Origin: Marsupella aquatica
Taxonomy: Eukaryota > Plantae > Marchantiophyta
DNA length: 64,000 nucleotides
Assembly: GCA_973895155.1 (NCBI GenBank)
Contig: OZ316897.1
Span: 22,171,455-22,235,454 of the forward strand
Direction of reading: 5' to 3'
The notes under the pieces were generated by a model that ran no database searches, had not been told where the DNA came from, and saw only the letters and a program-made list of their open reading frames with translations. The position numbers and the translations under genes are program-made. Below are positions 10,361-48,800 of this stretch, piece after piece; position 1 is the stretch's first letter; each line of letters opens with the position of its first letter.

Positions 10361-10385
10361 ATCACCCTATTCATTAAAACTGGAA
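10361..10385 (+). repeat. Left TIR of element X
   Basis: 23/25 match to the reverse complement of 28384-28408. Confidence 0.88.
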
Positions 10386-12333: not shown

Positions 12334-12339
12334 AATAAT

Positions 12340-19176: not shown

Positions 19177-19260
19177 TTAATCTGTTACTGCTAGTTCAGT
19201 TGGTTTATTTTTGCTAGTCACTTTACCTCAAGATCATCTCGAGGTACAACAGCTTCCTAT

Positions 19261-27018: not shown

Positions 27019-27022
27019 ATAG

Positions 27023-28383: not shown

Positions 28384-28408
28384 TTCCAGTTTTAATGAAT
28401 AGACTGAT
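28384..28408 (-). repeat. Right TIR of element X
   Basis: Reverse complement matches 10361-10385; followed by TSD TAAC. Confidence 0.88.
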
Positions 28409-28790
28409 TAACTCTCAAGGGATTTCTCAAGAAAGTTCTCCATGGTGACAATGACAGAGGTGAATCCCTTGCCTCCACACATTGTCAAGAAACTCAGACC
28501 CTCTTTCAACACTTTTGCCTCTCCCTGGCTAATCAAGTACTCACAGATCGCCACACCAACAACGGGGCCAAACGAGAGAGTAACCTTTGCGGATTTTTGC
28601 ATCTGGACATAAAGGATAGGAGACTCACAGTCTGCCATATCCTTGGATTGTAACCTGGTGTTGCGGAGTACCACTGTTTCTTGATGAACTTGACCTCTTC
28701 ACAAATGTCTTTGCTTGTCCAAATCGCGTTCGTGAGGCTTGTCATGAGACTTTCAGCCTCGGCAGATCCACCCTTCCCACTAGGACCCAT
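28409..28790 (-). pseudogene. Gene A, 5' portion (probable start MGPSGKGG..., frameshift near 28650)
   Basis: ORF 28408-28674 joins in frame to the sequence below 10360 once X and one TSD copy are removed; a TTTTCAG acceptor lies just upstream of ATG 28790. Confidence 0.7.
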
Positions 28791-29128
28791 GATGACAAAG
28801 TCTGAAAATTTGAATGCAAGGAGCAATAAATTTATCGCTCTGACAAACCCAAAAACCAAAAACCGGCATGCAAACATCGATACAATGAACTCAAAAAGTC
28901 CTCATTCACGTACAAGCATTAGGTCATTCCACGAGCGATACCAACTCCGATAAAATTATCGCAAACAAATATGAGCACGATATAAATTGACGGCCGAGAT
29001 TACATTATCGTACGTGTCAACATCTAAAAATGAGACCAACACCAATAAAATTATCGCAAAAGTGGTCCAAACAAAAAGTGAGCCTTCTTTAAATTGACAA
29101 CCGAGTGTACATGTGATAATGTGCCTAA

Positions 29129-29708
29129 TCAATCATCCCACCCAAGATCAAACCGCGCTACAGCAAAGCGAGAGATTAGCTTCTTGGGCCATTGGGGTAT
29201 ATGAGTGATCCTATGATCATAGGCCCATAGCCAATGAAAATCTGTGGCACCGGTCTCAGGATTAACTACAGCTACTGAATAGCCGCGTGACGGAACGTCA
29301 CAACAGGCATTTGTGCAACACTGACACATCTCACCATTGTCAAGGACATTTGTCCATAAACAAGATACATAAGTTAACCTAAATAACGGACAAAGAGGCC
29401 TAGGGGGGAGTTGATGAGTCCTATACGAATATAACTTCCCACCAGTGTCAATCAAAAACTCGGTAGCAAGAGGATTGTCCAGCTGGTCAATCACATCCTG
29501 AATCTCATCAAATGCTCTACGTCTGTTGTGGGCATAGAATTCTGGTTCATAGGCAGGATTGCCCTTCACAACATGACAGCAGTGCAGTATAAAATGTTTT
29601 ACTGCACCGGTTTTAAGAAAAAGCAGGATAATACTTCTAGAAAATGCAGCATATCTATCCCACCGGATATAAATTTCTCCCCCTACCTGGTCTACGTAGA
29701 AGTGATAT
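29129..29708 (-). pseudogene. Unknown gene of element Y, split by the solo LTR (5' part from 34323 to ~34360-34469)
   Basis: Frame stays open from the TSD to 29129 (YHFYVDQVGGEIYIRW...CQCCTNACC...); no recognised domain. Confidence 0.45.
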
Positions 29709-32700
29709 TGTGATGCCTAGCCAGGAATCATTCGGCCAGTTAAGTGGGTAAAGCAGGAATGCACCCTAGAAACACCTTAGTATAGGGACAAAACAAGGAA
29801 AATATAAACAATTAGGGGCGACTATGGAACCCAGGCCGAGGCCGGAGGTAAGGACGCTGGGGGTGAAAACTCGATTAGGGTTACGGCACGCTAAGCGTCG
29901 GCGGCTAGGAAGGATCAACGGGAGGAAGGACCGGAAGAGGAGAGGGGTAAGGAGCGCTTGCAGGAGATGGTGGCTCATTTGCGAGCATGAACTAGGCAGA
30001 CGACTACGGGAGGCCAACTACTGTCAGCTGCTTAGGCAAGCACTCGGGGAGAGAGTAGATACCGACGATCGACCTAAGGAGGGTATGAGCAACGTCAATC
30101 AAGCGGCACATTTCTGGGGATGCCTGTTCGAACGGGCAACTGAGTACATCAAGACTTACGAGGACAAAGAATCAGAAAGGGCAGCTCGAGAACGACAAGA
30201 GCTCGCTCGATTGTGGGAGCTGTAGAAGACGGCTTTCTTAGGAGGTGAACTCATCAAGGCCGAGTTCTTGTGGACTCCTACTTCCAATCAGCTCGACGAT
30301 CTTCTGTTTTGTGAAGACAGAATCATCGGCATTCGAGAGGCCATCAAGAACTGCAACGACATACACTGGGAATTGAAGGGTAGCACGGAAGGGTGGACCC
30401 AGGCAACGGTGCTAGGAGAAACCTCCACGGCAGCCGAGATGAAGAGGAAGGGAGCCGTCAACGATGAAGCCACCCCGGCAAAAAGAACGAGGTCGGCGGC
30501 ACCAAAGAAGCCAGCCGAGCAGCAGAGCAGGAGGCAGGGAGAAGCCGAAGAGGAGGAGGTTGATCCCATTAATGCCATTCCAACCATGGATGACACCTGG
30601 AAAGGCTGGGCGACAACCCTACCAGCGGAGGTGCAACTACATTTTGCACGGGAGGAGGATGCATGCTTTACGGCCATGCAGACCAAGAAGTACCAAGGCT
30701 TCATGGCCGGATCCGGCTTAGAGGCCTTTGTAAGATTACCATGGCTGAAGCCGGAGGTACCGGATTCAGACCTATTAGAATTCATGGGGTCATGGGAACC
30801 CGAGACCAATTGCACGAGGATATATGGGAAGGATTTCTATCTTACTCCCAAGGTGATTGCCGAAGTGTTTGGCTTGCCAATAGGCAATAAGACCAAAGTT
30901 GATACCAGGAAGACCTTGCCTGACAAGGAGTTCCGGTCGTTCCCCGGGCCATCAACAAAGAATGGCTTCTTCCGGAACACCTGCACCAACCCGCACATAG
31001 GAGAGATGATCGACTTCTTGCGGGTGACCATGCATTGTAACTTGCCGAGGGCAGAGATCGGCAAGGCACAGGTCTATCTGGCAGAGAGGCCAGACCCAAG
31101 CCGGGACTACAACGGGTACCTCCTCAACCAATTGAAGAAGATCTTAAAGGAGGAGCAGCAGGTAATCGGCATGGGGAGCGTGTCACGGCTTGGCTATCAC
31201 ATGCCGCTATTGTGCCGGTATGCCAGAGGTCAGACCTTTGCCCCAGTACTTCCCCTGCAGGTAAGGGTACCCGAGGAAGCTCCAGCACCGAGGCCGGTAG
31301 CAGAGAAGCCTCAACCACCTGTTAGCCCTACGATTGAGCAGGTGTTTAGGCCAAGGAAGGAAGACTTGCCAATGCAGCAACCAAGCATGCAGAATCTGCT
31401 GAAAATGCTGGAGAAGGAAAAGACGGCACCGGCACCGGCTTCGGCAGCAGCACCAATACAGGACACTGCCCCAGAGGTCAACCTAAGCAGAATCAGGCCA
31501 GAATCCAAGCCGGGTGTTCGAATGTACGTGGGAGTCTCAAGCTCTGAATCTGAGGCAGAATTGCCTGAAGCTCCTACCGGCGAAGAGGAGAGGGAGAAGC
31601 CGGAAGTCCAAGAGGTGGAGGAGGCAGTGGAGGACTGCAGCCATGATAACTCCGGCTATGGGTTGGACCATCACGTTCCAGGAGTAAGGACCTGTGGCCG
31701 GTTTATCCCCACACTTCCAAGGGTAGTTCGAGGGGACCCCAACCAGTAGAGTAGCCCCGAGTCTCCCCCACCAGATGTTGCTCCCCCGAGCTTTGACGGC
31801 ATAAAACAGACGGTGCAGGAATTTCAGGAGCAAATCAGGCAGGAAGAGGAGGTAGCCCTGGCTAGGGAAAAGGATTTTCCAGGAGGAGATTGGCCGGAGG
31901 ACATCAGGCGGCTAGCCAAAAAAGGAAGCAAACCTCTAGCCACGATTGAAGAGATCCACAAGACGGCTTGGGAGCAGAGGCCGCGATGGACGATGCCGAT
32001 CACTTCTACTTACTCCACCTACGCTAAGAATAGAGCCATGGAGTATGGTGAGATATTTGGGGAACTTGCGCTCGGCATCTTTGGGGAGGAGTTGGAGGTA
32101 GGACCCTTTTTCCATAGGGAGCAGTTGGAGAAGCACCAATTAGAAGAAGCGGTGGCTTTAGAGAGAAGCAAGAAGGACGAGGTCATCCGGCGGCTTAGGA
32201 GGATGGAAGCCAAGATTGAAGATCTAAGGGCGGCCAAGAAAGCCCAAGATGAACTGCGGATTAAGCGGCATGAGCTGAACATCATGCAGGGGCAGTTGGA
32301 CACAGCGCAGGCTGATAATCAGATTATCAAGGATAAACTGACTCAGACCCAGGGAGAATTGGCCGACGCAATCAAGGACAGGGAGAAATGGAAGAAGGAG
32401 CTGAGAAACGCAGAGGAGGCCCATATATCAGTCAACAACCGGGTCACGGCGGAGACTCAGAGAAGGGAGAGGGCGCTGAAGGGAGAGCTCGAGGTCATCC
32501 GCAGAGTCCTTGAGCAGAAGGAGGCCGAGTTAGGGAAATCCTATCAAGGGATTATTGCGCTACAGCAGGAGCTTGCGTCCCTGACGGCCAGCTTCAAGGC
32601 CGACCTGCGGGAGAAGGATGCCCAGCTCGACCAGACTTATGCCAAGATGAATAACATGGAGTCTGAGGTCGTAGCGGAGCTCGACAAGGAGCTAAGAGCA

Positions 32701-34322
32701 ACCCAGGAGGAGAGGGCTACCACCAAGAAGGAATTGGAGGAAGCCCACAGGGAATTGGAGGAAGCCAAAAACGAGTTGGAGGAGGCACGTAAGGACCTGC
32801 ATGAGACCCAGGAAGAGTTGGAGGAAATCACGAGGAAGATGGAGAACCTACAGCGGCGGGCCGACAACCAAACTGAGCGGCTGAAGAAACAAGCCGCAGT
32901 ATTTAAATGCTTAGCTGCATCAGGTCCATCTCCCGTTGGGGCAAACCAGTTACCAGGGGTGGTAATTGCCGAAGGACCAGCCGTGACACACGGCCCGGTG
33001 CCGGACATTGGCGGCAAAGGGAAGGAACCGGCTGTGGAGATAGTGAAGAAGAAGAAGCGGAAACCTTCGGGGCCCGGAGGTTATTCGACCCCTCAAGCCG
33101 TACTCAAACCGGCACCAACCTCCGGCATGAACACGGCAATAGATCCCGCTATCACCAAAGGTGGGGATGGCGCGGCCCAAGCCGAACTACTCAGTAATGA
33201 GGCCGGTATCCCAGATCCGCCTCTTGAGCAGGCCGGGGAGACCGTAGCCGAGAATGATTCCCGAGCCGATGCCGATGCCGATGGTGGACCCAGTCAGGCC
33301 GATGGAGAGTTGACTCAGTCACGGGTAGGTAATCTATCAGAGAACGAACCTACGGCAGTGGCTGAGGAGGAAGCGTTGGGGTCGTCCATTGAGGATCCAC
33401 CACCGGTGTCGTGACGGTGCAAGGGCGCCGTTCCTTTTAGGAAGGGCGGACGTGGAGGTAGGAGGCGTGAGTGGGCAGGGCGGGCGCTGATCTCCAAGTT
33501 TAGGATTAGGATCAGGACCAGGAGGCGGCCCTGACACTTAGCTTAGTGGAATTGCGGTTCCACTGGCAGGAGCAACACTTGTGCTCCTACCTTGTTGTAC
33601 ATAGGTAGATTCGGGCAGGTAGATTACTGTTAGGTAGATTAGGCTTACGCTGCAAAGAATTAGGCGGATCCACTACCAGGATAAGTACCTGGGCAGTGGG
33701 GAGCTCAGCGCCTCTTCTTTAGCAAGTTTTTAGTTTGCACCAGCCGGGCTGGGATCAAGTAGTAAGAGAAGCTCTCGGTTAGTCATACCGTGACCTTGTG
33801 TATATTCATGTTTCCTCATGCCTAAGAGCTGAATAGAGTTGGCCTCACGGCTTAGTTCGCAGAGCTTGTGTATGAGATGTACTGTTTGTATGGCAAGTGC
33901 ATGGTATGACTCAGTCAGAAGGAGTCATTTTGCTATTTGTGTGTCGCATTAACTTGTGTGAAGAGTGCCCACATCAACCAGAAGGGAGGAAAGTAAGCAA
34001 GGGAGTGAGAGTTGGATGTGTCGAGCTGAAAGAGGTCTTAGCGGCTTAACCAAGCCTATTGGGGATCATTCCGGCGGCGGAATCCAAACATACCTAACCA
34101 GAAGGAGAGGAAGACAAGGGAAGGCCTAGATTAGGCCGGCTACGTATCTCATGACCCGATGAAGGATCTGTCCAGTATATGTGTGTAAAAGGCTAATAGT
34201 AATAGTAGAAGGAGGTTAGCAACGTCCCATGCCGCTAAGCCGCGGAAATGGCCTCGCCAAGCCGCGGGAATCGGCTTGAGCTGGGGGTTTCTTGGGTTTA
34301 GGGAGCCATGGGACGCACCACA
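29709..34322 (+). mobile_element. Apparent solo LTR (4614 bp) of a long-LTR gypsy family, containing a ~1195-codon frame
   Basis: Ends TGTGATGC...GCACCACA (7/8 inverted repeat); 5-bp TSD GATAT at 29704-29708 and 34323-34327; no gag/pol. Confidence 0.82.
29824..33414 (+). pseudogene. LTR-encoded protein: PMD/Transposase_32-like segment + long coiled coil; one frame with two TAG stops (30223, 31747)
   Basis: ORFs 29824-30225, 30268-31749 and 31813-33414 share one frame and the gaps between them are open; LLEFMGSW...IYGKDFYLTPKVIAEVFGLP resembles plant gypsy accessory ORFs; ELEEA heptad repeats. Confidence 0.72.
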
Positions 34323-34799
34323 GATATGCGTTATTATAAAATGGTTTGCTACCAGCCTGCAAATCTTTAAAATTAGTGATTCATCCAGCTTCCTTAGCTG
34401 GTCCATCAGGGCACCATCCCCCCATTTCGGAGGATCCACAAAGGGTACAAAAATGCGTCGCTCGAGCATGACCTGATCAGCGAATAGAAATCAGGAATAC
34501 ATTTTGGAGAACATACTCATTACAATTCTACAAGTTTCATTCAACTTTATAGTACCTTGTATAACGGGCTGTGAAGCCAATGCACTTGTTAGCTAATTGT
34601 CTGTAGAAGCGCAAAAAACTACACTCTGGACCACACAACCCGAAGTCAGGCGAGGCAGGGTCATTTATATTCAAAGTGTTTTTTTACAAGCTCTTCTCGA
34701 GCAAACCTTAGATCACCCAAAACAATTGACTACTAAATTGACCAGAGGAATGAGGAGTGCGATAAATTTATCGAATGTTCGCAGCAATGCCTCATCCAC

Positions 34800-35348
34800 T
34801 CAGACTTGTCCATGCCATGCAAGAATTGTCCGCTTCCCGCTTTCTCCAAGATTCACCCAAACTCTAAGAAACGCATCTAATCGGTCATACGAGAAGCACC
34901 CAAGCATATCTATGGGAGGGAGGAAATGAGTTTCCTCTCGGAAGACCCTAGCAATATGTAGGTTTGAGAGAAGGTCGGCATTAGGAATGCTTGCGAGCAT
35001 TTGGTTTATGTCATTAATCTCACGGACTGCATATTTCAGTAAAGCCCAAAATCGTGTACCAACAACAAGATGGTTCCATTTCTTCGAGGTGGCTCCAAGA
35101 CAAATGATTGTTCTCATTTGAGCCAGTCGTTCTTCGGGTAAAAGTTTTAGGTCAAGGCCAAGGTGTTCATCTTGTGTGCAAGACAACGCCAAGAGAGGCC
35201 AAATGTGAGATTCAACGAGTTGATCAGGAAGTCCATTCAACAGACTTCCGCATTCCACACCAGGCACTTTTCCTTGAATATATTTCCTACGCTCGTGGGC
35301 TAATACGGATGCCATCTTAGCAACGATTAGGTTCTCCGACGCAGCCAT
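34800..35348 (-). CDS. F-box-like domain protein (cargo of element Y)
   Basis: LLNGLPDQLVESHIWPLL ... CLGATSKKWNHLV resembles a split F-box; ATG start; flanked by Y palindromes. Confidence 0.5.
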   Translation of the reverse strand: MAASENLIVAKMASVLAHERRKYIQGKVPGVECGSLLNGLPDQLVESHIWPLLALSCTQDEHLGLDLKLLPEERLAQMRTIICLGATSKKWNHLVVGTRFWALLKYAVREINDINQMLASIPNADLLSNLHIARVFREETHFLPPIDMLGCFSYDRLDAFLRVWVNLGESGKRTILAWHGQV

Positions 35349-35388
35349 GAAGCAGAGCTACCAAAACCACCAATAAAAGTACCTTCAA

Positions 35389-35872
35389 TCACCAGGTGTA
35401 ACCAAAGACATCCACAGTACCAACCCTGCACGACAATTTAAAGATTAGGACTCGGACCATATTGTATTCGGTGCACATGGGTAGGACTTGTTTACTTAAA
35501 TGTGTCCTTACAAAACACGCCTCAATGTGAAGGTCGCAACACTCATCGTGAAAGGTTGACCCAAGGGTCCTTGTTCCAAATCTGACAACATAAGTATGCC
35601 AATTTATGGTACTTGTTGTCAAGAGGACGACAACAATAGTTACAAGAAAACTCCAAAGAATGGAGACACGATGTTAACATCAACCTCGAACGGATTGGAA
35701 CTCCTGCACCATTCATTCCGTAGAACTCAATCCGGAGAGGATTCTGCCTATCTCCGGGATCAGTACCACCCATCCACAACGGTCCTACACCAATGGGGAG
35801 AACTTTACGTTGCACGAGTTTCTTGTACAACCGGCGTGCACGTTTGACACGATTTTGAATTAAGACAGCCAT
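35389..35872 (-). pseudogene. Unknown small gene (ORFs 35543-35872 and 35389-35622, possibly frameshifted)
   Basis: ATG-start ORF co-oriented with the other Y genes; no recognised domain. Confidence 0.3.
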
Positions 35873-36060
35873 TTGTCACTATACCTTTGATCCACCAAGT
35901 CCAATCGACCTTTCGTTGTGCCTCCTAAACCCTGCAGCACTGCGACATCATAGAGGAAGATGAGTCTCCAAACAAAACAGAGGAAGATGAGTCTCACAGG
36001 AGGGTGCGATAACTTTATCGCACCTCGCATTCATCTTGAAGACATGACTCCCTCACACAC

Positions 36061-36393
36061 TCAAGCAATCTTCAATCAATCACAGGAATGGAAACTCCGA
36101 TAAATTTATCGGAGTCTCAAGCAATCTTCAATCAATCACAGGAATGGAAACTCCAATAAATTTATCGGATTCTCAAGCAATCTTCAATCAATCACAAGAA
36201 TGGAAACTCCGATAAATTTATCGGATTCTCAAGCAATCTTCAATCAATCACAGGAATGGAAACTCTGATAAATTTATCGGAGTCTCAAGCAATCTTCAAT
36301 CAATCACAGGAATGGAAACTCCGATAAATTTATCAGAGTCTCAAGCAATCTTCAATCAATGACAGGAATGGATACTTCGATAAATTTATCGGA
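36061..36393. repeat. 56-bp tandem repeat x6, each with the palindrome CCGATAAATTTATCGG or a near variant
   Basis: Units start at 36061, 36117, 36173, 36229, 36285 and 36341. Confidence 0.95.
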
Positions 36394-37635
36394 CCTTGAA
36401 TATAATTTATGGAATGAATGCGCACTGGATCAAAGGAATGCAACAGAGGAATGTAGAATGCGATAAATTTATCGCAATCCTCTCGGATCAGGACATTGAC
36501 ACCAAATGACAAGTCAACCTTACATGGATGATACTCGACTAGAATGGTAGTTCCGATAAATTTATCAGGTTCTCTGGAGAAAGAGTCAAGTCTCTTGGGA
36601 GGAATGCAAGACTTGATAGGAGTTCAGTATTCACTCTGAGTGAGGTGTTGGTCGCTCCGGCGAAAATAAACTTTTTATGGGCAACCCGCTCCTCTTTATA
36701 TAGGGGATGCTCTAACCATGGTAACTTTCCCCCTTAACCATGGTTACTTTCCGCCTTAACCCGGGTTAGTGCGTGGTCGACCCTCGATTACGTGGTTTTG
36801 GACCAAGTTACTCATAGTTCGGACTTTTTCACAGAGCGAATGTAAAACTCAATGCACGTATCGCTCCCTGCATTCCCGCGGCGATGCAATGTAGGCAACT
36901 CATGTTTTTTTGATTTTTTGGCAGTTTTATCGGAGATTGCATTGCCTTAGAAAAAAAATGGAATTGGGCTAAACGAGAAGTGTGTCACACTTCTCGGTCA
37001 GTCCAAAATCGTGTTATTATCTTTCCTAGTAATTTGGTCTCTATCATTTTTACTAGGCTCATTTGACTTCTCTATAGACTGAAATCCAATGAGAACATTG
37101 GCATTTTTCTCTCCTTCAGGTACCTCGCAAATAGATGCATCACTCTCTGTTGAGCTACCATCCTCCATAGATCTCCTCGACGCATTTAGAGGGGCACTAA
37201 AAACGTGACTAAAACTATTCCCTTCTACAGCTCCTTCTAAACATTCAGACACAACTTGTGCTATGATATCGGATTCTCTATCTCCTTCCTGATCTTCGTC
37301 CTCTGATCCACTCGACTCATCTGAAAACACAATTGGACTCCGTGGCTCTCTATACATAACCTGAATGCCACTAAGACCTCTCCTCGACACTTGGAGCCTG
37401 GAACCAATCACAGTCCGCCCTGGAGAACTTGGAGAATCTAGAACTCTCAACGGTGAACTATTCACACGTGCAATCCCAACGACTCCGCAAGCTGCAGGAA
37501 AATTGAGCACTTGTTGACCACGATTCCCACGGACCATTCGGGAAAGGGCCGAGTCTGGACTTTGTAATCCGATTCTGTGACGGGGTCCCTCCACGGTAAG
37601 TCACCATTAGTGTCACGGCGAGAGTTCCCTCACGT

Positions 37636-38907
37636 TTGGGCCCGGAGAGAGCAGCAGTGTTTTTATGTAAGACAGGTCCCTACTTGCTTGTGAAGGGAGT
37701 ACTTCACAAGTACGGCATGGATGGCCGTCTTCGTCGTTGTTTGGAGGAAGCTGAGATACGTATAGTCATGGCAGCATTACATGAGGAAGAAGTTGGTGGC
37801 CACTTTGCACGGGAGACCACCGCAAGGAAAATACTAGATGCTGGATATTGGTGGCCAACTCTCTTTTGAGATGTACACCGGTACATCCAGCGATGTGATC
37901 CGTGCCAGCGTCAAGGCAAACCAGGGCCCTCCTCACGCCACCCATTGGTGCCCATACTTCCTCTTGCACCCTTTGAGAAGTGGGGGGTTGATTTCATTGG
38001 CCCCTTCGCTCCCATCACTAGAAGAGGGGGGAAGCGCTACATCATTCTTGCAACGGACTATGCCACAAAGTGGGTGGAGGCCCGAGCCACTGCCAAGGAT
38101 GATGCCAACACCACGGCACGTTTTTTGTACGAGCAGATTTTTACACGATTTGGTCCCCCATTGGAGCTGGTGAGTGACAGGGGTACTCACTTTCTCAATC
38201 ATACGATTGAACGTCTGACGGAGAACTACCTGATCTCACATAGGAAGACCACTCCGTACCATCCTCGAGCCAATGGGCTCACTGAGAGAGCAAACGGGAT
38301 CATGGGCAAGATTCTTAACAAGACGGTATCAGCTCACAAGACAGATTGGGATTTGAAGTTGTTGGCTGCTACTTACGCCTACAACCTGGCTCACAAGACT
38401 ACCACGGGCCACAGCCCCTATTTCCTTGTGTTTGGACAACACTCTCTTGTGCCGGTGGAATTTGAAGTGCCCACCATTTGGATCCTAACACGGGAAAGGG
38501 AAGGGGAAGAAAGAAGTATAGCTGCACGGATCCAACAGTTGGAGCAACTCACTGAGACACGAGAAGAGGCTTTGACCCGTACAAAGCAGGAGCAAAGCAA
38601 ACGGAAGTCACATTACGATTCCCGTCTCCGTCGTGTGTCCATTGAGGAGGGAGATTTGGTACTCCTCTACGACAGTCGTTTCATGCATTTCCCCGGGAAG
38701 TTGCATACACGTTGGATGGGGCCCTACATAGTAGACGCCGTCTACTCCAACGGCTCAGTTCAACTCAAGACGTTGGAGGGGCAACTACTCAACACATGGA
38801 TCAATCAAGAACGCCTAAAGAAATACTACATGGAGGAAGAGTATGGTGCTCGCGGGGGCGCTTCGCAATTAAGAGAGGAGCTATGTGACGGGGTCCCGCC
38901 ACGGTAA
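37636..38907 (+). pseudogene. pol: Integrase region of pol, copy 3 (TGA at 37867)
   Basis: Nearly identical in protein sequence to copy 2 integrase; zinc finger, DDE and GPY motifs. Confidence 0.93.
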
Positions 38908-41900
38908 GTCACCATTAGTGTCACCAGCAAGACACCTGTAAATGAATAAGCCCATAGACGCGAGTTTTTTTTAATGTTCTTTAAGTTTGTAAAGTTTTTT
39001 AAAGCATCTCGGGATAGTCGGAGACCCCAACAGTTTTGTCTAGACCCGGGTTAATTATGGGGCAAAACCTGGGGGGTATAAAATCGTGACTTTTCGGGAA
39101 GGTAAGGAAGTCCGGGAAATAAGCATTTTTAATTTTTTTGGTAACACCCCTTCTAAAGCAACACTCAGGCAGAGCTGGGGGAGTATGGGGGGTTTAATTA
39201 AACCCCCATTAAATCCTTCCGCGAGTGGGCAGCGAGAGAGCCGGGCCTTAAAGAGTATGAGGGGATCCATAAGGGGCAGCCCTGGAGCTGCCACATGGAA
39301 TCCCCATAAGGGGCACGAAGCCAGCCAAGGCGAAGAAAAAAAAGAACTCCGTGGGGGGAAGCTGCCGCAAGTTAGGGGGGTTTTTTTTAAATCCCTCCCA
39401 AGGAGGGCAGCCGGGCCGTGGCAGAGCCGCGAGTGACCGGGAAGGAGGGCCGCGAGCTCCGCGAGGGCGGGAGCTGCTGCGAGCTGCTGCGAGTAAGGAG
39501 TAGGGGGGTTTTAAAATAAATCCCTCCTAAGGAGGTCCGTGAGCTGCCAAGAGGGCAAGGGCTGCCAGGAGCGCGAGCCCGCACGGATGTGAGCTGCCGC
39601 GCAAGCGGGGGTGTCCACGAGTGAGCCAGGGGGCAAGGAGCCAGCCGGCAGCAGGATTGGGGGATATTAGGGCAGCCGCGTGGCAGGGGGCGAGCGAGCC
39701 CTGCATAGGTCCGTGAGCCACCAGGGAGCTACTAGGTGCGAGGTGCGAGGACGCGAGCTGCGGGAGGAAGAAATTAAAACCCCCTTAAGGGGCTCCGCGA
39801 GTGACTGGGCAGGGGGGCCGCAAGCCCTACATAGGGCCGCGAGCCCGCACGGACGCGAGCTGCGAGGAAGGGGGACTCCCGCGAGTCGGGACAAAGGAGG
39901 GCCCGGGGCGCAAGGCGAAAAGCTGCTCCCAGGAAGGGTTTCGTTGTTTTTTTTTCTCTCCCCTCTTTTCTCCTTTTCACACGACCCTTCTCTTGCCGAA
40001 AGCAAACTCGAGTTTCTCTCTCTTATTGCCGAAAGCTTCCTCCTTATGTTACAATTATTTGAGCTCTCTCTCTAATTCTTCTCAAGGCTCACTCAAGGGG
40101 GATTGCGGGGACTATTCGGGCATTAACGACAGCAACATGGAGTGACGACGGAGGGGATTGAGAGAAATAAATTAATCTGGCTACGGGGGCTGTTTCGGGC
40201 CAGGGAATTGACATTGCTACGGGTGACGGGATTTGGTGGTTGAGGATTTGATTTCGGGATGCATGAATGCTAGATCAACCGGAGTTTAGTGTGGCACGCA
40301 TTCGGAGATACAAGGCTGCTTACCGTGACTACGTGGAGACTTTGATTGCAAGGGAGAGAGAAGAGAGAGAAGCTACGATGAGCACGGGATTGGCAGCAAG
40401 TTCCACACCGGTGGGTAGGAGGATTTTTTGTCGAATTTATCCCAAGACCTCCGCCAAGGTGATGGAGGATTGTCGAAATATTTTCCAAGCCACCGGGGTT
40501 ACAGAATTCATGAAGGTAGAGATTACCATCCCTCCGGGGAAGAGCTGGGACATTGAGGCTGGGATGAAGTTACGAACGGAGGGAATCTACTTTGAATGTC
40601 TCAAACGTGTAGTGCCCCATGTGGAGTTGGCTAGGCTGCTATTTTTGGAGAATCAGAAATTCTCATTCACACCTTGGCACATTAGGGGAGAACTCACGTT
40701 GAAGATGGTGGCCACTTGGGTGATTAATCCCACCTCCACCACTGCCATCCCTCTTTCCGCTGTCAAGGATGTTGAGTATAAGGGATTCCTGGCCAAGGTT
40801 CATCAACGGGTCCTTGGCAACGTGCAATCCGGGGTGGTGAATGAAGAGCATTTTGTGGTAGCTATGGACATCAAGAACCACCCAGCCCATGTGTACGGAT
40901 GGTGGTACTACGGGTTGAAGAAGCTGTTGGCCGCTGATCCCGGGAGTGTGAAACCAGGTGGGGCTGTACATTTGATGGGGTCATTTGTATTGGCTAGGGC
41001 AGAAGGGTTGATTGGTTCCCCGGGACAGGAAGACACAGGATCATCTCTCACCACGGAGATCCGGAGTATTGCCACTACCATTTTAGGGAAGCTCACGGAG
41101 GAATCATCGTCGGCTGGTGGGGATGACGATAGAGGAGAAGAAAACCAGGATGAGGACTACACGTTGGAGTGGCTTGAATCACTCGTGGGAGATCCAAAAA
41201 AGCCCCTGGTCTACAACATTCCGGATGTTTACCTGGTAGAGCTACAGGATTTCAGAGAGGGAGTCCAAGAGGGACTCAAGCTAGTCCACGCATTGAGAGA
41301 TTCTCTCAAGCACGCCACAGCCAGAGTAGAGACGTTAGAGCAGAGTACCCTGTCTCTGAAGGAGGTGATCAAGGCCAAGGAGGGGACCATTCATGAGAAG
41401 GTTAAGCTTCTCCAAGCAGCTCACGTAGAGATCTCCAACTTAAAGGGAGCCTTGTCCACCAAGGCCAAGGAAGCAGAAGAGGTGGGAGCGTTGAGACAAG
41501 CATTGGCCAAAGAGAAGCAGAATTCTGGAGAAGTGGTGGAGTGGAGAAACCAGGTGGGAGCACTACGGAGTCAGGTGGCCGCCTTTGAGACACGAGCAAA
41601 GAGGAGTGAGGCCTTGAGTCTGGGGAAACGGAAGAGCCCCGGCACACCTAGCTCCACACTTTCCCCGGATTTGATCTCCCAGGCTATTGAGATGGTGGTG
41701 AAGGAGGTTAGTGGGAAGTATGGACCCTTGTTGGATGGAGCCAAGAAGAGTCAGGAGAAGAGCAAGGGCTTGGAGAAGAAGCTCCGAGAGGTACGGAAAT
41801 CGTTACGGGAGGCTCAGGTCAGTACGGGGATGCCACCCAGGTCTGTCACCCCCGGGACTCCCATGGCCACAGGGCAAGTTCTACCGTTGGAGTTGCGGTC

Positions 41901-43223
41901 CGGAGAAGAGGCTACCCTATGGAAGGACACCATTGGTGAGGGGTACATCAAGGCGTGGCAAGCCTTGGCCACTTTGAGGAAGCAAGGGAGCGGCAGCACG
42001 GAGAGTACCCCGGTAAAGAAGAAGAAAAGTGAGGTGGCACTCACTCCCGTGAGTGATGAAGAGGAGGCCCACTCACGGGGCACAAGCCAGGGCACCGAGA
42101 GTGAAGAAGAGGAGGAGTAGATAGTCGTACGGATGTGGTTGTACGGCCTCTGGATTTCCAAATTTTTTGGATGGGGTCACTCACGGGCTTGTTGGAAAGA
42201 GCTCGCGGAGCTGATTCCAACAAGAGGCGGCGCTCCTCAAACGGAGCCAGGATGAGCAAGTTATGGCCCGACGAAATTGTGTTTTCGCGATACGGAAACG
42301 ACCATAACTCAGGCGTCCGATGTCCGTTGCGAGTGCGGCTAAGTGATTCGGGATCAGGAGGAGAAGGGATATCCAAGGGTGAGCTCAAAAGTACAATTGA
42401 TAGGGCACCTAGTTTCGGCCATTGTGGGGTGCCTTGCACTTTCAGGGTTCACGGAGTACAGTTGGGGCACCGTCAAAGGCACCGTCGGCCCCTTGTTTAG
42501 GGTTTAGGGTTTTAGCAGCATGTGTGTGCCGCATGCCTTTTTAGTTTAGGGATTTCTTAGTGCAGGGTTTTAGCGGCGCCGCTAGGGTAGCCCCCATCGT
42601 TGTAACCCCATGAGGGGTGCTTTGGTGTGGTTTTTTGGTATTTAGGGGGAGAGCCCCGGAGTAGTGAGGGGGGGAACTCAGTCTAGTGTTTGTTTGAGGG
42701 AAGTTGTCTAGCAGCCCGAAGAGGGAATCCAGCCAGAGTAGTGAGGTGACAGCATAGTATTGTCCTAGGGAGGCAGGAGTTGGGCAGATGGCAGGAGGCC
42801 GGGTGGTCCTTGCAATGTATACGATTGTTCACCAAAAGATATCGATTTGGTTGGATTCCTGAATTTTGGGTGTGGTGTTCTCTCTCTTGTTGCACGGTTG
42901 TGTTCTTCCCCTAGCATGAATGTTTAGAGAAACTCGTATGGTTTGGTCGACCCTGTGAGTGGGAGAGTGGTGACAACACTTTGCCAAAGACTAGGAGGAG
43001 TAGGAATAGGACAGTCCACGGGACTTGATCAAAAGCGGAGTGCATGTATAGTCGATAGACTTGATCAAAAAATACATTTCCGGGAGCGAAAACGAATCTA
43101 CTCATCCTTAGTGAGAAGTTACTCTGTATAGCGTCCCTCCACGTCCCCGTCATACGATACAAACGATTATTAGTAGAAACTCAACGGTATTTGATGTGTT
43201 AATCGTTTGATAAGCAAGTAACA
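38884..43223 (+). repeat. 3' LTR of copy 3 (4340 bp)
   Basis: PPT AAGAGAGGAG at 38871-38880; start matches the 5' LTR stub; CA end followed by the TSD. Confidence 0.93.
40267..42120 (+). CDS. LTR-encoded 617-aa protein (globular N-half, acidic linker, coiled coil, basic NLS-like and acidic tail), function unknown
   Basis: Uninterrupted ATG-TAG ORF entirely within the LTR; both ends conserved in copy 2. Confidence 0.8.
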   Translation: MLDQPEFSVARIRRYKAAYRDYVETLIAREREEREATMSTGLAASSTPVGRRIFCRIYPKTSAKVMEDCRNIFQATGVTEFMKVEITIPPGKSWDIEAGMKLRTEGIYFECLKRVVPHVELARLLFLENQKFSFTPWHIRGELTLKMVATWVINPTSTTAIPLSAVKDVEYKGFLAKVHQRVLGNVQSGVVNEEHFVVAMDIKNHPAHVYGWWYYGLKKLLAADPGSVKPGGAVHLMGSFVLARAEGLIGSPGQEDTGSSLTTEIRSIATTILGKLTEESSSAGGDDDRGEENQDEDYTLEWLESLVGDPKKPLVYNIPDVYLVELQDFREGVQEGLKLVHALRDSLKHATARVETLEQSTLSLKEVIKAKEGTIHEKVKLLQAAHVEISNLKGALSTKAKEAEEVGALRQALAKEKQNSGEVVEWRNQVGALRSQVAAFETRAKRSEALSLGKRKSPGTPSSTLSPDLISQAIEMVVKEVSGKYGPLLDGAKKSQEKSKGLEKKLREVRKSLREAQVSTGMPPRSVTPGTPMATGQVLPLELRSGEEATLWKDTIGEGYIKAWQALATLRKQGSGSTESTPVKKKKSEVALTPVSDEEEAHSRGTSQGTESEEEEE

Positions 43224-44284
43224 GATTCCCTCGCTTGCTTGCACATCCAGTCTAGGCAATGCAAAGACCAATCGCCGTATCGGTCTTTGTATTTCTACCT
43301 CCTGGTCCTCACCTAGAGACTAAAAGATCCGTTGTTGAACGTGTGTTGAATGTGGCGACTTGAATGCTGAGTGCGATACGCGTATCGGTCGCCGGATACC
43401 CTCTCCATAACCCAGGATGGATGGCCTGAAGCGACGTCTTGGACCTAAACTTGGAATTGTAATTTTCTCACTTCTTGGTGATGGAACGCTCAAGAGACGA
43501 CGCTTCTCAGGTTTACTAGACGCCTGACTAGACGACACATAGTAAGAACTGGGCTCAGGACCAGAACTTGCATCAGAATCCGAATCAACGTCAAATTTTT
43601 TTGGCACTATCTGCTGTGAGAGAGGTAGAGCTTTAAGTATGCAACTTGGCAAGCAACGAGCGACAACATTAGGAGAGGATTCAACTGAACTTGAAGGTGA
43701 ATCTGTGTCTGATTGAGACATGGCTATCTGAGACACTATGGGGCTTTGCATTCCTCCCTCAATCAGGGAAAACGAATGGCTCAACGGACAAAATGTTGCT
43801 CCAAGAACACAACTCCCAAAACTCTACTCTGGATAATGACGCCAAAAACTTATCGGCGGTGGCCCTTTTATAGTGTCTGTTGAGGGGTTGGCCCACATGG
43901 CCACTTTTGATTGGCCGTCTCGCTAAACGACAAAATAGCAGAGAAGGGTATATTCACTAGTACATATTTAGCTGATTTCCAATGCTCAATTTTTGCAAAC
44001 AATCGGCGTCCGATTCTTTTAGAATCGGAAATTCCCATTATCACAAAATGGCAATATGCCATACTCTCGGCTTCGGATATCTTCATTTCTGATGTAATTA
44101 ACAACGGAACCTTTCCGATGCGGTAAAAACGGATCATATCCGTTACAAACTACATCGGATCCCCTAACAAAAAATTTGATTGATATGTCCGATGTTTTTT
44201 GAACCGCAAATGATGTGCGTTTCAATATTGATCGGAAAAGTTCCGTAGTTGATAAGAACGGATATTATATTCGATTGTGGTAAA

Positions 44285-44415
44285 ATGGCAAAGTCCGATG
44301 TTGAGAGAATGGGAAAGTCCGATGCTAAGAGAATGGGAAAGTCCGATGCTGGGAGAATGGGAAAGTCCGATGCTAGTAGAATGGGAAAGTCCGATGCTGG
44401 GAGAATGGGAAATTT
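44285..44415 (+). repeat. 24-bp tandem repeat (~5 copies) GGGAAAGTCCGATGCTGGGAGAAT
   Basis: Visible periodicity; translates as a KSDAGRMG repeat. Confidence 0.9.
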
Positions 44416-45679
44416 TCATTTTGGCAAAACGACAAATTCCTATTGTGTTAGATGGGGCATGTAGTTGCACCGACATACTCTTCCTAGAAAAGAGGATACA
44501 ATCATTCTTGCATGTTTGAATGACTTCATACTTGAGGCAAATGGACTTAATTGAATGTTGTTCTTGCCTCCTTCCAAGACCCCAAAATATTGTTCCCTTT
44601 TGGCAATATTTGCTCAACATGCAAAATCAAAAATTTATCATCTTAAAGGAGATTGCTTGTCCCATGTAGTCTTTGCTGCAAGTCCAACAACAACATAGTT
44701 GATGAAAGATGAGACAATCGGGAGCTGCCCTTGACGCCAAGGCTTTGGAAGGACCAAAATATTAATCTTCCATAACTAATAAACTATAATGATCTCATGT
44801 CAAGTCGGATGGAGGAGGGCTTTACTATTCACGAATGACCCCAAATTTCTATTGATTGCTCCAAGGGAATGTAAGAGGGTAATTGTAATTATAGATCACT
44901 CGATGCAAACATGCAATATCATGATAGAGCAAAACTGGGATTTATTAGTCTAATGCCACACTTTTGTGGCATAATCACTACATTGCCACTCTTTTTCTTG
45001 TATTTATCAGTCTACCACTCGTTTGAGTCATCGGTTAAGAAAAGTAACTCAGGTTAACTACCTAAGATCCGATGTTTGAGATTTCTTTTGGTCTTCCCAT
45101 TGGACGGTCGTCGCTTCCCCCACGGTTACATTTTGAACCCTCAGTATAGTTTGCGGAGGGGTGGGTTGGCTAATCCATTTCTCCTCCCCTCCATTTCTCT
45201 GTCACCATAGTTGAGGCGCACTGGCTGCGTCTTTGCTCCACCCTTGCCACTATCGTTGCATCCTCATTTCCCCGGGCCGGGCTGTGTTGTCGTTGACCCT
45301 GGCTGCCTCTAGCTCGGCCAGGGCTGCATTGTTGCATGTTGCCTGTCGGCCTCTCCCGACTCTGCCCAGCTTAGGTCCAAATTATGGGTCTTAATAAATT
45401 TAGAAGTGTATAAAATCCCTAAACACTCCAAGTCAAACAATAAAAGTGTTAAGCTTGCATGTACATTGTGAGGGATAAGAACTAGAAAGTTAAGCTCATG
45501 TTGGAGGAATAGCAATTGGGATGGGTGACCACTTAGTTGAGGAATGAAGAGTTGAAATGTCAAAGGAGGTGGGCACCTCGCTCGTGGTTGCAAAATGAAA
45601 GTAAATATACAAAGGAAGAGATGGGTGACCTGAGCACCCCGCGTTCGCTCCAATGTGTATCCCATTTTCATTGTTTTAA

Positions 45680-45808
45680 ACTTTCCCATTCTCCCAACAT
45701 CGGACTTTTCCATTCTCCCAACATCGGACTTTCCCATTCTCCCAACATCGGACTTTCCCATTCTCTTAGCATTGGACTTTCCCATTCTTTCAGCATCGGA
45801 CTTTTCGA
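45680..45808 (-). repeat. Inverted copy of the same 24-bp tandem array (~5 copies)
   Basis: CTTTCCCATTCTCCCAACATCGGA units are the reverse complement of the 44285-44415 units. Confidence 0.9.
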
Positions 45809-48800
45809 TATAAGTCCGATTGTCGATATCCGATACTTTTATCATGGCATGTTACGATGCCGACAGAATCGGATGTATGGTTTTTTCATATTTTGTTTTA
45901 CAAAGACGTCCGATGTGGAGAGAATCGGAAAAAAGGAGGTAAAATGTACTAGTGATTTCTTGGATTTCCAATTTGATTCTTACACATGCATCGTGGAGAA
46001 ATTATGTAGTTTTGAAATTTAAGCGATAAATCTATCTGATGTTGGTATTGCAAAAAGCGTTTCCTTCATATGGAAAGTTGTAATTTTGAAATTGCAGCGA
46101 TAAATTTATCTGATGTTGGTATTGCAAAAAGTGTTTTCTTAATATGGATAGTTGCAATTTTGAAATTTAACCGATGAACCAAAGGATCTTAGTATGGTCA
46201 GCAAGTATTTTTGGCATCCGGAGTTGTCGCGATAATTTTATCGGACTGCGCATTGTTGTTGAGACAACGACATGTTGACTATGCATGTATGTGGTTACTA
46301 TGGTCGATTGCAGAGGTAACTGCACTTAAGGTAAGTTTGACAAACTGTGCGGTAATTTCTTATCGACTGTGATGTAAAATAGTTACGGTAAATAACCAAA
46401 AATTGGGAAAATTGAGATTCGGTCGGAACTTTCATGGTTGAAATTCGGAGTCCGATACGGGTATCGGACTTTGTTTGAAAAGTGGATATGGATTTCTAGA
46501 TAAGACATTTCATATATCTTTGGAGAGCGTGAATATGATCGAGGTTCTGGCGAACATTTTTTGGATCTAATTTTTCCTTGATAAATTGAATGTTTGTGAC
46601 CATTAATTTCAGTCGTTCGGACGATTCTTGAATTTCCTGATTCAATCCAAACTCCGATATAGATTACATTATTTCCCCAAAAACCTGTTTTTGATAAAAA
46701 AACCACCAATTTTGCGAGATTTGGCGGAAAATGAAAACACACTTCTCGTTTGCGGAAATAGTTCTCGTTCGGTCGGAAATCATGTTTCCAGAGATGATGA
46801 GGGAGAGGAGAATGGCCCAATAGATAGAGGGCAAAGAAAACACGCCAATGCGGCCAGTAGCCCAATTAGGATTTGGTCTGAATGGAAGCAATCAAGCAAG
46901 CTTCCAAGATTAGGCTAATTGTAGCTTATTACACACTTGGGGGGGTCACTTCCACGGAAGTGGCACATCACGTGCGACGAAGTATAGGCCCATTTAAATG
47001 GGTGTGGCAGAAGACTTCCAAAGTTTGGTGGAAGAACACATAGGGCATGTTTTATGGACTGGTCAACTTTCAAGAACACATAGGCCTATTTAATTGCAAA
47101 AAATACTTTCTTTAAAGTTTTTAGGGGTTTTTTAATAAAAATGACAAAATTTAAAGAAAGAAAGGGCTTTGCAAACAAAAAAATTTCACTTATAAGTTAG
47201 GGGGGTCAAACCCTAAAACATCGCACGCGATGTATGGCCCTCCATATAGTGACCCCCCGAGATTACACATTTTGTAGGACTCGACAAGAGTTTGACGATG
47301 GGCCGCAAAAGCCCTATTTTGTACACATTTTGACAGGCCAATCTGGTCTCTGATCTTATGAATCCAATTTTCCCATTCGGTGTTTCCCACATCAATTTCT
47401 GTGGATTTCAGTGTGCTGCTATGGATCTTATGAATGTGTCAAACCTTTTTGGTTGGAATGTGCTTTCGAGTTCCAATGTCCTGAATGCATTTGCCATCTC
47501 CCGCTACTCGCAGCAATGTGCATTAGCCAGTTATGTCGACTACACAAAATCTGATTCACCAGTTTTGTCGACAATGCTGGACCCAATTTGCCACTTACCA
47601 CGTTCAGGAAAATATTCATTCGCCAGTGGGTTAACCACATCGGGAACCTGGTTTTCCAGTTAAAACTATTGCCCGCCGCACCCAGTAGCCACCTCCCCTA
47701 CCTGAACACTTATGACACTCGCCAGTCTGGCAAAAATTCAAAAACCTTAAAAAATACACTGACCCCGACCCCAACTGAAGTGATTTGGTAAACTATAGAA
47801 CAAAACTACACCTGATGTTGTAAGTTGATGCCAAAAATTGTCTAGCTCTTCCATTTAGAAGAACATCCTGGACAGCTCATTACTAGGGGTCCTAGTAGGT
47901 AACAAGACTGTCATAGGGCCCATCACCTCCAACAGTCCTACCAGCAACTAAATGTAAATAATTGGGCTGCTTTGCCTTTGGGACCCTGTCTCCAAGTCTG
48001 GCATTTTTGTTTGTTTGCATTGTAATATATAAATAATGAATCACTTGTTGTGTGAAATGGCACTCAATTATTAAAGTTATTTTAGTTTCTCTAATTCAAA
48101 ACACCTATCTGGTCAACCAAGAGTAAATTAATAATCACTTGACACTACAGTTAATTAGAGGAAGAAAAAGAACTGTGACCCATCAACAAAAAAACTTTTT
48201 CTTGCCCTCACATACCGAACTTTCCCTTTCCCAACTCTTTTTAAAAACCTCCCACCCCCACACATTGCCCCGGCAACTCTTCCCCAGAAAAAAAGGCTAA
48301 AGAATGGGGAAATTGAAGCCCAAACTGACCCAAACATTTGAGGCATGCCCTGGATAGAACTATGCAACCTGGATGGGCCACCCAAATTCGTGTTGCCTTT
48401 TCAATCAGTATGTTACCTTTGTATTATAATCTATGATTGGGACGTTTTTTTGTCAAAAGTGACCTTGTCCGTCTGGATTGCAAGGTTAGCAGGAGTGATG
48501 CATCCCAGGATTGGGATAAAATGTGTAGCCAAGAAAGAATGGAAAAAATTGGAGAGGCTTGGGAAAGCCTTTTAAAAATGGAAAGAGACAAGAGAAAAAG
48601 AAAGAAGGTAAGCCGTGATGAACTTAGCCACTGAATCATGCAACCCCCATGGACAGTGACACCTTTGCCTTTCCAAAAATGTTTCAACATCAAACATAGA
48701 CGGGCATTTAAGAAGCTCTTTGGAACCATCTTTCAATGAGTCAGTCTAATGTAGCTAGTTTTCCCTGGTAGTTTTCATGAAGAATTGTCAGAATTATACA

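Follow-up and report, generated by a model that had tools for sequence, protein, structure and literature searches.

The outer transposable element of the window, by which we mean the whole 64-kb stretch of DNA that was analysed, carries a family of 16-bp palindromes. We consider these, with fair confidence, a candidate binding site for the ParB-type domain of the element's own gene A, whose ParB-methylase would load on the copies of its own family only and methylate them or keep them active in some other way. A second element, X, is nested in this outer element Y, and both the nested and the related elements show different palindromes together with the same type of gene; therefore each likely encodes a protein that recognises only its own copies. 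Our main reading is that this is likely a VANC-like self-recognition system. A dimer of the predicted ParB-methylase would quite probably read both half-sites, and protein and site may well have drifted together until each family had a private code. It is possible, and we put this forward with some reserve, that the sites or their surroundings receive 4mC or 6mA from the methyltransferase, which would thereby counter 5mC silencing by the host; the anti-silencing outcome would be as in VANC, reached by different chemistry. More tentative still is the wider proposal that land-plant transposons carry an address in the style of parS, where a ParB-methylase at private CGA-N7/8-TCG sites writes 4mC or 6mA, possibly while sliding, and escapes 5mC silencing. 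On that proposal the nested X and Y and their relatives would form an orthogonal set of protein-site pairs, with the private palindromes placed in introns and promoters.

Palindromes and nested insertions of element Y

With up to three mismatches allowed, the 16-bp motif CCGATAAATTTATCGG matched 17 times in the window; shuffled sequences gave a mean of 0.20 and a maximum of 1. The initial annotation had described a perfect 16-bp palindrome. The motif is real, but the perfect 16-mer accounts for only two of the 17 copies (36097 and 36209), and the Y motif is a degenerate family rather than a single perfect palindrome. Its consensus is SCGATA-N4-TATCGS, with C or G as the outer base and a variable centre, and searching with this pattern added copies at 43373 and 46452 to give 19 in total. 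The previously listed positions were all recovered (28947, 29042, 34759, 36006, six at 36097-36392, 36460, 36553, 46023, 46097 and 46229), and further copies lie at 28823 and 8558. Copies had also been claimed for both introns of gene A. They are present in intron 2 at 8488 and 8558, but in the variant form CCGATA-AAAA-TCTCGS (CCGATAAAAATCTCGS, two copies in a 70-bp tandem duplication at 8488..8573), and the one in intron 1 (9702..9717) is weaker still, being an inverted copy of 8488-8503 (94%). All 19 copies fall inside the 9.8 kb of Y segments (P about 1e-5, each tandem cluster counted once) and every non-Y segment has 0 copies. Within the window the motif thus does mark Y and is absent from X and the LTR inserts, as had been proposed.

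Segment 1 of Y (6851..10360) contains the 3' part of gene A and has an LTR retroelement somewhere to its left; 18 short GTCATT/AATGAC repeats occupy 6866-7306 in its left part. Three palindromes sit just upstream of gene A (28823..29057), probably in a 5'-UTR intron to judge from an acceptor-like site near 28800. They are followed by open frame C (29129..34560, minus strand, no Pfam match), with one palindrome upstream (34759..34774), and by open frame B (34800..35357, minus strand, weak F-box-like match with E 0.07), with nine palindromes upstream (36006..36568). Six of these nine belong to an array of 56 bp x 6 at 36060-36393, which is reminiscent of sopC. Open frame D (36998..43823, minus strand) is of low complexity and serine-rich, and four palindromes lie upstream of it (46023..46467), two of them in a 74-bp tandem duplication.

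Contigs from four public sequencing runs that span sites without insertion provided empty-site joints, and these junctions reveal four nested insertions in Y. Besides X, an LTR-like insertion (29709..34322, 5-bp duplication GATAT) splits frame C, with the joint 29703>34323 in two of the four runs. Frame D is split by a truncated Gypsy-type LTR element (37576..43223, plus strand) with an integrase, a long LTR and the 5-bp duplication GATTC. The fourth insertion is a non-autonomous 2-kb CACTA-type element (43955..45954) with CACTAGTAC ends, a 3-bp duplication ATT and 24-bp subterminal repeats. None of these three contains the motif. We tried the CCGAT-containing 24-bp repeats of the CACTA-type insert as relatives of the motif and rejected them (0 CGA-N8-TCG). 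As contigs join 37570>43224 (three of four runs) and 43951>45955 (all four), the Gypsy-type and CACTA-type elements were inserted in Y. The initial annotation had suspected that Y or a relative extends further right; these joints reconnect Y across the inserts and the 46-kb palindromes are therefore part of Y itself. In the comparison of the left repeat field with the right side, where the inverted matches were only 15 bp and at chance level, we did not find the ends of Y, and a profile of 13 DUF7869 proteins gave no transposase match in the window. Y is probably the disrupted copy of a DNA transposon with several genes, which we would place with the Sola type.

Almost all copies of the Y motif are in non-coding DNA, namely introns and 5' regions of Y genes; the copy at 43373, a palindrome in its half-sites only, falls inside frame D. 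The motif multiplied through independent local tandem duplications, and different clusters have unrelated flanking sequence. That many copies lie within tandem duplications, and that slippage is favoured by palindromes, would suit hairpin-forming repeats which have no protein reader and either spread by slippage or act at the RNA level (splicing or small-RNA precursors). We regard this as very improbable: the flanks are unrelated between clusters, for which reason we also rejected a CRISPR or satellite origin, the CG ends keep a constant spacing even though families differ in their cores, the site of the related locus L002 is internally asymmetric and pairs poorly, and an Rfam search of the window returned 0 matches.

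Gene A and its predicted fold

Gene A, on the minus strand and broken in this copy of Y, corresponds to a predicted ParB-N4/N6-methyltransferase fusion. Its first exon is divided by the insertion of X into a 5' part (28413..28790, frameshift near 28667) and a downstream part (9763..10356), which we located by tblastn with exon 1 of L002 and L005, two relatives described below. Exon 2 (8592..9662) contains a ParB/Srx-fold domain with GGNH near 9341 and a predicted ParB-type helical DNA-binding region. It is 81% identical to a gene A relative, P0001, and has stops at 9092, 9014 and near 8834. The last exon (7317..8373) holds the amino-methyltransferase domain with motif IV DIPY near 8077 and motif I DLCCG near 7595; it is disrupted by a frameshift near 7950 as well as a stop at 8128. 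Its match to Pfam N6_N4_Mtase (PF01555) has an E-value of 3.5e-5, which is below the gathering score; the exons of L002 and L003 and the full-length members are above the cut-off. The last exon is 60-66% identical to those of L001-L003. Members from Chara to ferns retain the motif DxPY, as do environmental ones.

A structure model of P0001 reached a pLDDT of 90.9; an earlier model from 12 sequences had reached 53 with weak ParB matches. The top Foldseek matches of the P0001 model were ParB-CDP (E 3e-6), Noc, KorB (target TM 0.62) and ParB-parS. Structural matches for the DNA-binding domain by itself were weak (VIA Z 4.0-5.1, within background), Pfam HTH_ParB was found in four of 115 family members, and searching the PDB by sequence with A3 returned 0 matches. 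The palindrome had been likened to bacterial parS in size and symmetry, not in sequence. This holds, the Y site being unrelated to parS TGTTTCAC-GTGAAACA, and the analogy is strengthened by the predicted ParB/Noc/KorB fold of the gene A family, DNA-binding region included. As a separate observation and a lead only, the atlas neighbours of P0001 are fungal DUF3723 clusters (0.94-0.95).

The whole predicted ParB-like architecture, together with R45, H102, H142 and N143 conserved in the N-terminal pocket, would fit a partition-like use, with the protein clamping at the sites and spreading outward so that element DNA, once excised or extrachromosomal, is tethered, segregated or paired. This is the reading we find hardest to credit, as the methyltransferase is fused and the G-E-R-R-x-R patch described as needed for the CTP response (PMC7053999) reads GGNH followed by S (47%), G (21%) or T (9%) in the family, with positions matched by eye. 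A scan of 29 long frames showed no ParA-like gene, Y being incomplete in the window. With no ParA seen and the arginine patch altered, nothing suggests a role in chromosome or plasmid partitioning.

Element X and the relatives of gene A

Element X is a DNA transposon (10361..28408) inserted in exon 1 of gene A, with a 4-bp target duplication TAAC and a 25-bp terminal inverted repeat with two mismatches. Its empty-site joint 10356>28409, with four shared letters, occurs in three of the four runs. X has its own palindrome, CTCGAGAnnnTCTCGAG, in 19 copies between 11063 and 20276, with a tandem array of 68 bp x 3.6 at 18942-19183. All 19 are confined to X (P about 2e-7, tandem clusters counted once), and a stricter pattern gave 17 copies against 0.19 expected. 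At least three copies fall in open frames, and the right arm has no palindromes; X carries separate subterminal repeats. The only gene that we saw in common between X and Y is the ParB-like/methylase gene. In X this gene is divergent (13065..16321, minus strand, SGQH near 15121). Its methyltransferase-like part matches Pfam N6_N4_Mtase (E 1.6e-4), blastp matched the gene to a Ginkgo member of the family (E 4e-10), and its ParB part is weakly related (pairwise hhalign E 0.003, probability 9.9%). It shares atlas neighbours with P0001; a search for homologues of the methyltransferase frame at near lengths found 0 among 2958 candidates. Read by eye, motif IV of X appears degenerate (DFGR), and methylation would therefore not be the universal output.

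That X keeps 19 palindromes despite this degenerate-looking motif IV is one of the points in favour of an operator, where the same ParB-type protein would regulate the transcription of its element in the manner of KorB and the methyltransferase would be secondary or inactive. Each Y frame has a cluster immediately on its upstream side (28823-29057, 34759, 36006-36568 and 46023-46467), and KorB ranks among the best fold matches; both points lead the same way. Overall we think an operator unlikely, given that L001, L002 and L003 have many copies far inside introns and on the downstream side of the gene, and that DxPY is conserved from Chara to ferns and environmental members.

We compared five metagenome loci with relatives of gene A (L001-L005, four from one assembly). 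Further private versions of a CGA-N8-TCG scaffold occur in four of the five, with 12 copies in L001, 22 in L002, 8 in L003 and 4 in L005, next to 12 in Y; for L002 the mean of 200 shuffles was 1.29. The fifth locus, L004, is a mostly coding stretch of 1.1 kb without the motif. The corresponding scaffold in X is CGA-N7-TCG (11 copies). Against these counts stand about 0.5-1.6 expected copies, and the LTR and CACTA inserts carry 0-1. All 39 strict copies in L001-L005 lie outside homology-based coding intervals. Motif likeness tracks protein likeness: GGAGCGAGAC-NN-GTMTCGCTC is common to L001, L003 and L005 (80-85% identical), and L002 (63-65% identical) and Y (48-57%) differ from them in motif. 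Support for grouping these three loci as a clade is not strong (88/83), and only six motif-bearing elements enter this comparison. The palindrome had been linked to gene A-containing elements in general; the scaffold is indeed shared by the relatives, but the Y motif is private to Y and each relative has another core. Members of the gene family were found in Chara, Riccia, Adiantum, Ginkgo and two marine invertebrates. Pattern scans, which find close relatives only, gave 0 of 31 stretches from viral contigs and 0 of 89 from prokaryote genomes.

Another element-encoded protein, for example a transposase, could also read the palindromes. In L003 a DUF7869 transposase-like gene, whose product we take to be the Sola1 transposase, adjoins the ParB-methylase gene and suggests a DNA transposon. 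X and Y possibly belong to one superfamily; a blastp comparison of the C-terminal frame of L003 with the X frame 27023-27685 was not significant. Transposases and TnpA-type proteins are described as binding family-specific motif clusters and activating cognate copies (10.64898/2026.08.24.746577), and the ParB-methylase gene would then be a passenger. We give such a TnpA-like reader a low probability. The palindromes are internal, the right arm of X lacks them and its own subterminal repeats are separate, the density of the motif is highest within the introns of the very gene for the ParB-methylase, and a two-fold 16-bp site suits a ParB fold.

Several observations weigh against the main reading of self-recognition, among them the weak matches of the DNA-binding domain by itself, the weakly related ParB part and degenerate-looking motif IV of X, and the palindromes that fall in open frames. 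Several motif variants are CG>TG/CA changes, the pattern expected of methylated sites, which we counted against it. The CpG observed/expected ratio was 0.76 for Y, 0.63 for X and 0.66-0.67 for the two nested LTR inserts, and neither CpG nor CHG content showed a sign of protection. As the CpG values of Y and X are not clearly above those of the LTR inserts, we see no footprint such as protection from 5mC would leave.

Comparison with known systems

The closest description of the gene type is Sola1-1_Ec32 of Ectocarpus, a giant DNA transposon (21.5 kb) that duplicates 4 bp of its target and has an accessory gene fusing ParB-like and N4C/N6A methyltransferase parts; the authors propose binding and modification of its own sequence (PMC12477816). 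Compared by description, gene A has the same two domains, and residence in a DNA transposon is seen for X (terminal inverted repeat, 4-bp duplication, empty site). Sola1-1_Ec32 comes from a brown alga, and its main text names no binding site and has 0 matches to 'palindrom', nor do three supplement tables remark on inverted repeats for this family; for Y, X and the relatives we could define candidate sites that differ between families. Sola1 target duplications are reported with an AWWT bias (PMC3845634), outside which TAAC of X falls, whereas the 4-bp duplication and the 25-bp terminal inverted repeat are present. For Plavaka elements of the red alga Bostrychia, the text describes an accessory gene, PAG3, with a ParB-like domain and adjacent tandem inverted-repeat arrays, and proposes self-binding and self-modification with VANDAL as precedent (10.1101/2025.02.11.637652). 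There ParB is fused to a 2OG oxygenase, the methylase is a separate gene (PAG2) and the arrays lie beside the gene, whereas gene A is a ParB-methyltransferase fusion and the Y palindromes spread through introns and 5' regions. The text of that paper, supplements aside, describes no specificity across families.

VANC of Arabidopsis VANDAL elements is a sequence-specific protein encoded by the element, as is proposed for gene A. Its motifs are reported from non-coding DNA of introns, intergenic regions and termini, where they grew by tandem duplication and are not the same in related families (PMC5735166, PMC10398659), and the motifs of Y, X and the relatives are likewise largely non-coding, tandem-duplicated and family-specific. 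They differ in that VANC motifs are 8-9 bp and non-palindromic and VANC, carried on a Mutator-like element, has neither ParB nor methyltransferase, whereas the candidate reader in Y is a ParB-fold methyltransferase fusion. Loss of 5mC is demonstrated for VANC in these two papers; for Y and X a comparable effect is a prediction. Bacterial ParB and Noc recognise their 16-bp palindromes through pairs of DNA-binding domains in two-fold symmetry, with specificity switched by four residues between paralogues (PMC7383237). The gene A family resembles ParB-parS, Noc-NBS, KorB-OB and SopB-sopC in its predicted N-terminal ParB fold and helical DNA-binding domain and in the multiple 16-bp palindromes of Y, and differs in an extra N-terminal domain, a C-terminal methyltransferase, introns, an altered arginine patch and a eukaryotic transposon host. 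Prokaryote-type amino-methyltransferases are also described for Marchantia (MpDN4MT1, a host gene with TSPPY in whose description ParB is not mentioned; 10.1101/2021.02.12.428880) and, in another methyltransferase group, for a ParB-HTH-fused Dam of chlorophytes (PMC4738411); the gene A family has DxPY.

The gene type (Ectocarpus Sola1) and the idea of self-binding (Bostrychia, with inverted-repeat arrays) are thus already in print: two algal genome papers of 2025 propose, for accessory proteins that contain ParB, binding to and modification of the transposon they come from (PMC12477816, 10.1101/2025.02.11.637652), and VANDAL is given as the only proven case of both (10.1101/2025.02.11.637652). 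Our literature search found no paper on a land-plant ParB-methylase transposon and none on these palindromes; the inverted-repeat sequences may already appear in Iyer et al. 2011 or, for the Bostrychia work, in its supplements or journal version. What is new is that X has its own palindrome together with its own ParB-like/methylase gene, and that the relatives have private versions of the scaffold. The locus offers candidate sites that are concrete and specific to each family, in a genome of land-plant type, and built-in controls, with two nested elements whose palindromes are mutually exclusive and relatives with other cores, and the idea of self-binding is therefore directly testable. If true, it would be a further way, derived from prokaryotes, for transposons to steer the chromatin they lie in, and it would be a source of orthogonal site-directed methylases.

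Palindromes of Y and X

The initial annotation described a perfect 16-bp palindrome marking the outer decayed transposon Y. Its occurrence in Y was confirmed: at ≤3 mismatches the 16-mer was found 17 times in the window, compared to a mean of 0.20 and a maximum of 1 in shuffled sequences. Only two of the 17 copies are perfect, and what is present is a degenerate family with the consensus SCGATA-N4-TATCGS and a preference for AATT at the centre. Six copies form a tandem array (56-bp x 6), the others are single or lie inside unrelated 70-bp and 74-bp tandem duplications. The flanks of the clusters do not align with each other, which indicates that the motif was multiplied locally several times and rules out a single satellite or MITE as the source of its spread. 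That the palindromes are neutral or act as hairpins at the RNA level appears very unlikely. The motif is private to its element and absent from X and the LTR elements, as had been claimed: in a window scan all 19 copies lay within segments of Y, with no copy in the LTR and CACTA inserts, in X or in the 16.7 kb on the right (partition P ∼1e-5, with clusters counted once and the outer limits of Y taken from the adjoining LTR and MITE, not independently).

The nested DNA transposon X (10361..28408) has its own palindrome, CTCGAGAnnnTCTCGAG, with a spacer of 7 bases. It emerged from a palindrome survey, and all 19 copies are located in the left 10 kb of X, including a 68-bp tandem array; with a stricter pattern, 17 copies compare to 0.19 expected, and the partition P is ∼2e-7 with clusters counted once. 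X also carries a divergent ParB-like/methyltransferase-like gene, the ParB part of which is weakly recognizable. Read by eye, the motif IV position of the methyltransferase is DFGR, and the enzyme may be dead. Downstream lies a NIF/FCP1-like phosphatase gene (11074-12141, minus strand, E 2e-17), and this CTD-phosphatase-like cargo could act on transcription as well. Subterminal repeats of the CCAAATGTACA type (10430-10490 and 28270-28370) share one orientation at both ends of X, with the termini inverted. A Gypsy-type pol with a long LTR and without a 5' LTR (20470-27014) appears to have taken the place of the greater part of a gene, which starts with a cysteine-rich stretch near 20430 and is possibly the X transposase; no empty-site joint for this insert was among the matches listed. 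X also holds a 257-bp duplication (86%; 16653-16909 and 17040-17295) with an internal inverted repeat in each copy.

Extent of Y and its surroundings

From its GT-AG introns, Gypsy-type pol genes and cupin gene we infer that the window DNA is eukaryotic and land-plant-like. Empty sites were identified as contigs from four public sequencing runs joining across four insertions. The X joint, 10356>28409, was present in three of the four runs (4 shared letters, duplication TAAC), 29703>34323 in two (target duplication GATAT), 37570>43224 in three (GATTC) and 43951>45955 in all four (ATT). As the joints leave ∼9.8 kb of continuous Y sequence without inserts, the palindromes near 46 kb belong to Y, as had been suggested. 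Y contains the open frames D, B and C and gene A, the ParB-like/N4-N6-methyltransferase fusion gene, all on the minus strand. Gene A contains two introns; X, which lies in exon 1, disrupts it, as do two frameshifts and four stops. Exon 1 homologues from two metagenome loci (L002, L005) match both flanks of X, and arithmetic from joint and frame positions gives an uninterrupted frame at the X empty site.

Directly past the gene A stop we observed a dense field of 18 short GTCATT/AATGAC repeats (6866-7306), a density found nowhere else; it may be the subterminal region of Y or a separate MITE. The LTR-like units at 29709-34322 and 38883-43223 are very long (4.3-4.6 kb), with long open frames of coiled-coil character and no domain match; the former shows the highest summed contig depth. 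At 46934-47266 lies a MITE-like insert of 333 bp, its inverted ends being of the GGGGGGTCAC type (empty site in two of the four runs). An intronless, GC-rich short-chain dehydrogenase gene (54678-55680, minus strand, Pfam adh_short E 2e-21) has a base composition unlike its surroundings and could be horizontally acquired. The cupin gene is a germin-like host gene (61434-62349, minus strand).

The ParB-methylase protein and its relatives

We modelled P0001, a protein 81% identical to gene A exon 2, from 115 sequences (pLDDT 90.9, pTM 0.84). Foldseek returned 18 matches at E ≤0.001 (best E 3.4e-6), among the matches listed ParB, Noc or KorB throughout, with a target TM of 0.62 and an rmsd of 5.6 for KorB. 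VIA-align ranked PadC first (Z 9.2, rmsd 3.2, 99 aligned), followed by KorB (Z 8.4, rmsd 12.8, 171 aligned) and a pNOB8-like ParB (Z 8.2, rmsd 4.5, 210 aligned). Residues ∼150-312 reached a Z of just 4.0-5.1 against the DNA-bound domains of KorB, ParB and SopB, and Pfam HTH_ParB matched 4 of 115 family members. We consider it unlikely that the palindromes are KorB-like operators regulating the element genes. The proposed analogy to parS holds for the predicted fold and the symmetry of the site, though the system is not a member of ParB/parS; partition-like tethering via the palindromes is extremely improbable. The C-terminal domain of the family is PF01555 with DxPY preceding motif I, which is the order of a beta-class methyltransferase; DxPY is no discriminator of 6mA and 4mC. 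The N-terminal pocket retains R45, H102, H142 and N143. However, GGNH[S/G/T] replaces the GERRxR patch of ParB described in PMC7053999, which would make CTP-driven sliding doubtful. The nearest atlas neighbours of both ParB-like regions (P0001; X 15020-15530) are fungal DUF3723 clusters. DUF3723 and Starships co-occur in the literature, and Starships might be candidates for private palindromes.

A metagenome scan reduced 293 candidate stretches to five loci (L001-L005), 49-58% identical to the query and four of them from one assembly. CGA-N8-TCG occurs 12, 22, 8 and 4 times in four loci, with 0.5-1.6 expected; L004, a mostly coding stretch of 1.1 kb, has no copy. The strict copies, 39 in total, are without exception non-coding, for intervals hand-drawn from homology, a pattern picked after viewing the loci and copies that are not independent. 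The core GGAGCGAGAC-NN-GTMTCGCTC is common to L001, L003 and L005; L002 has CCGATCCAAACATCGG and Y has SCGATAAATTTATCGS. The former three are mutually 80-85% identical and were grouped with moderate support (88/83) in a protein tree of 28 rows hand-chosen from 193 proteins and the loci, which placed L002 and Y apart and X on a long branch. The convergent neighbour gene in L003 has full-length relatives carrying DUF7869, presumably a Sola-type transposase. That the palindromes are read by a transposase or by some other protein of the element is rather improbable. The profile search gave 306 family representatives at E ≤0.001; named-organism clusters made up 13 of the 20 looked up (Chara braunii, Riccia sorocarpa, Adiantum, Ginkgo, Ptychodera, Holothuria). 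The Ptychodera and Holothuria members are P0092 and P0172.

Proposed function and precedents

The first reading of the palindrome is partly supported and extended. We propose that the ParB-type domain of the element's own protein would bind the palindrome as a dimer, that protein and palindrome would drift together, and that the bound enzyme would mark or protect cognate element copies. This proposal, drawn from few compared elements, is on the whole fairly probable; binding of the candidate sites by the ParB-type domain is likely, and the methylation or anti-silencing step is tentative. Points against it are the CpG content, no higher in Y and X than in the nested LTR inserts, and the possibly dead enzyme of X.

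The gene type and the self-binding idea are already known. Ectocarpus Sola1-1_Ec32 has a ParB and N4/N6-methyltransferase gene, for which binding and modification of its own element was proposed (PMC12477816). The authors of 10.1101/2025.02.11.637652 make the same proposal for Bostrychia Plavaka PAG3, a ParB with a 2OG oxygenase adjoined by tandem inverted-repeat arrays. VANC/VANDAL has the same motif layout, with proven anti-silencing (PMC5735166, PMC10398659); the system described here resembles it in this layout but is not a member. Our literature searches gave no report of land-plant ParB-methylase elements, of palindromes that are family-specific and dispersed in introns, or of a common CGA-N7/8-TCG scaffold; Iyer 2011 and the Bostrychia supplements or journal version may hold part of this. 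With Y, X and their relatives, the published self-binding hypothesis gains protein-site pairs on which it can be tested directly.
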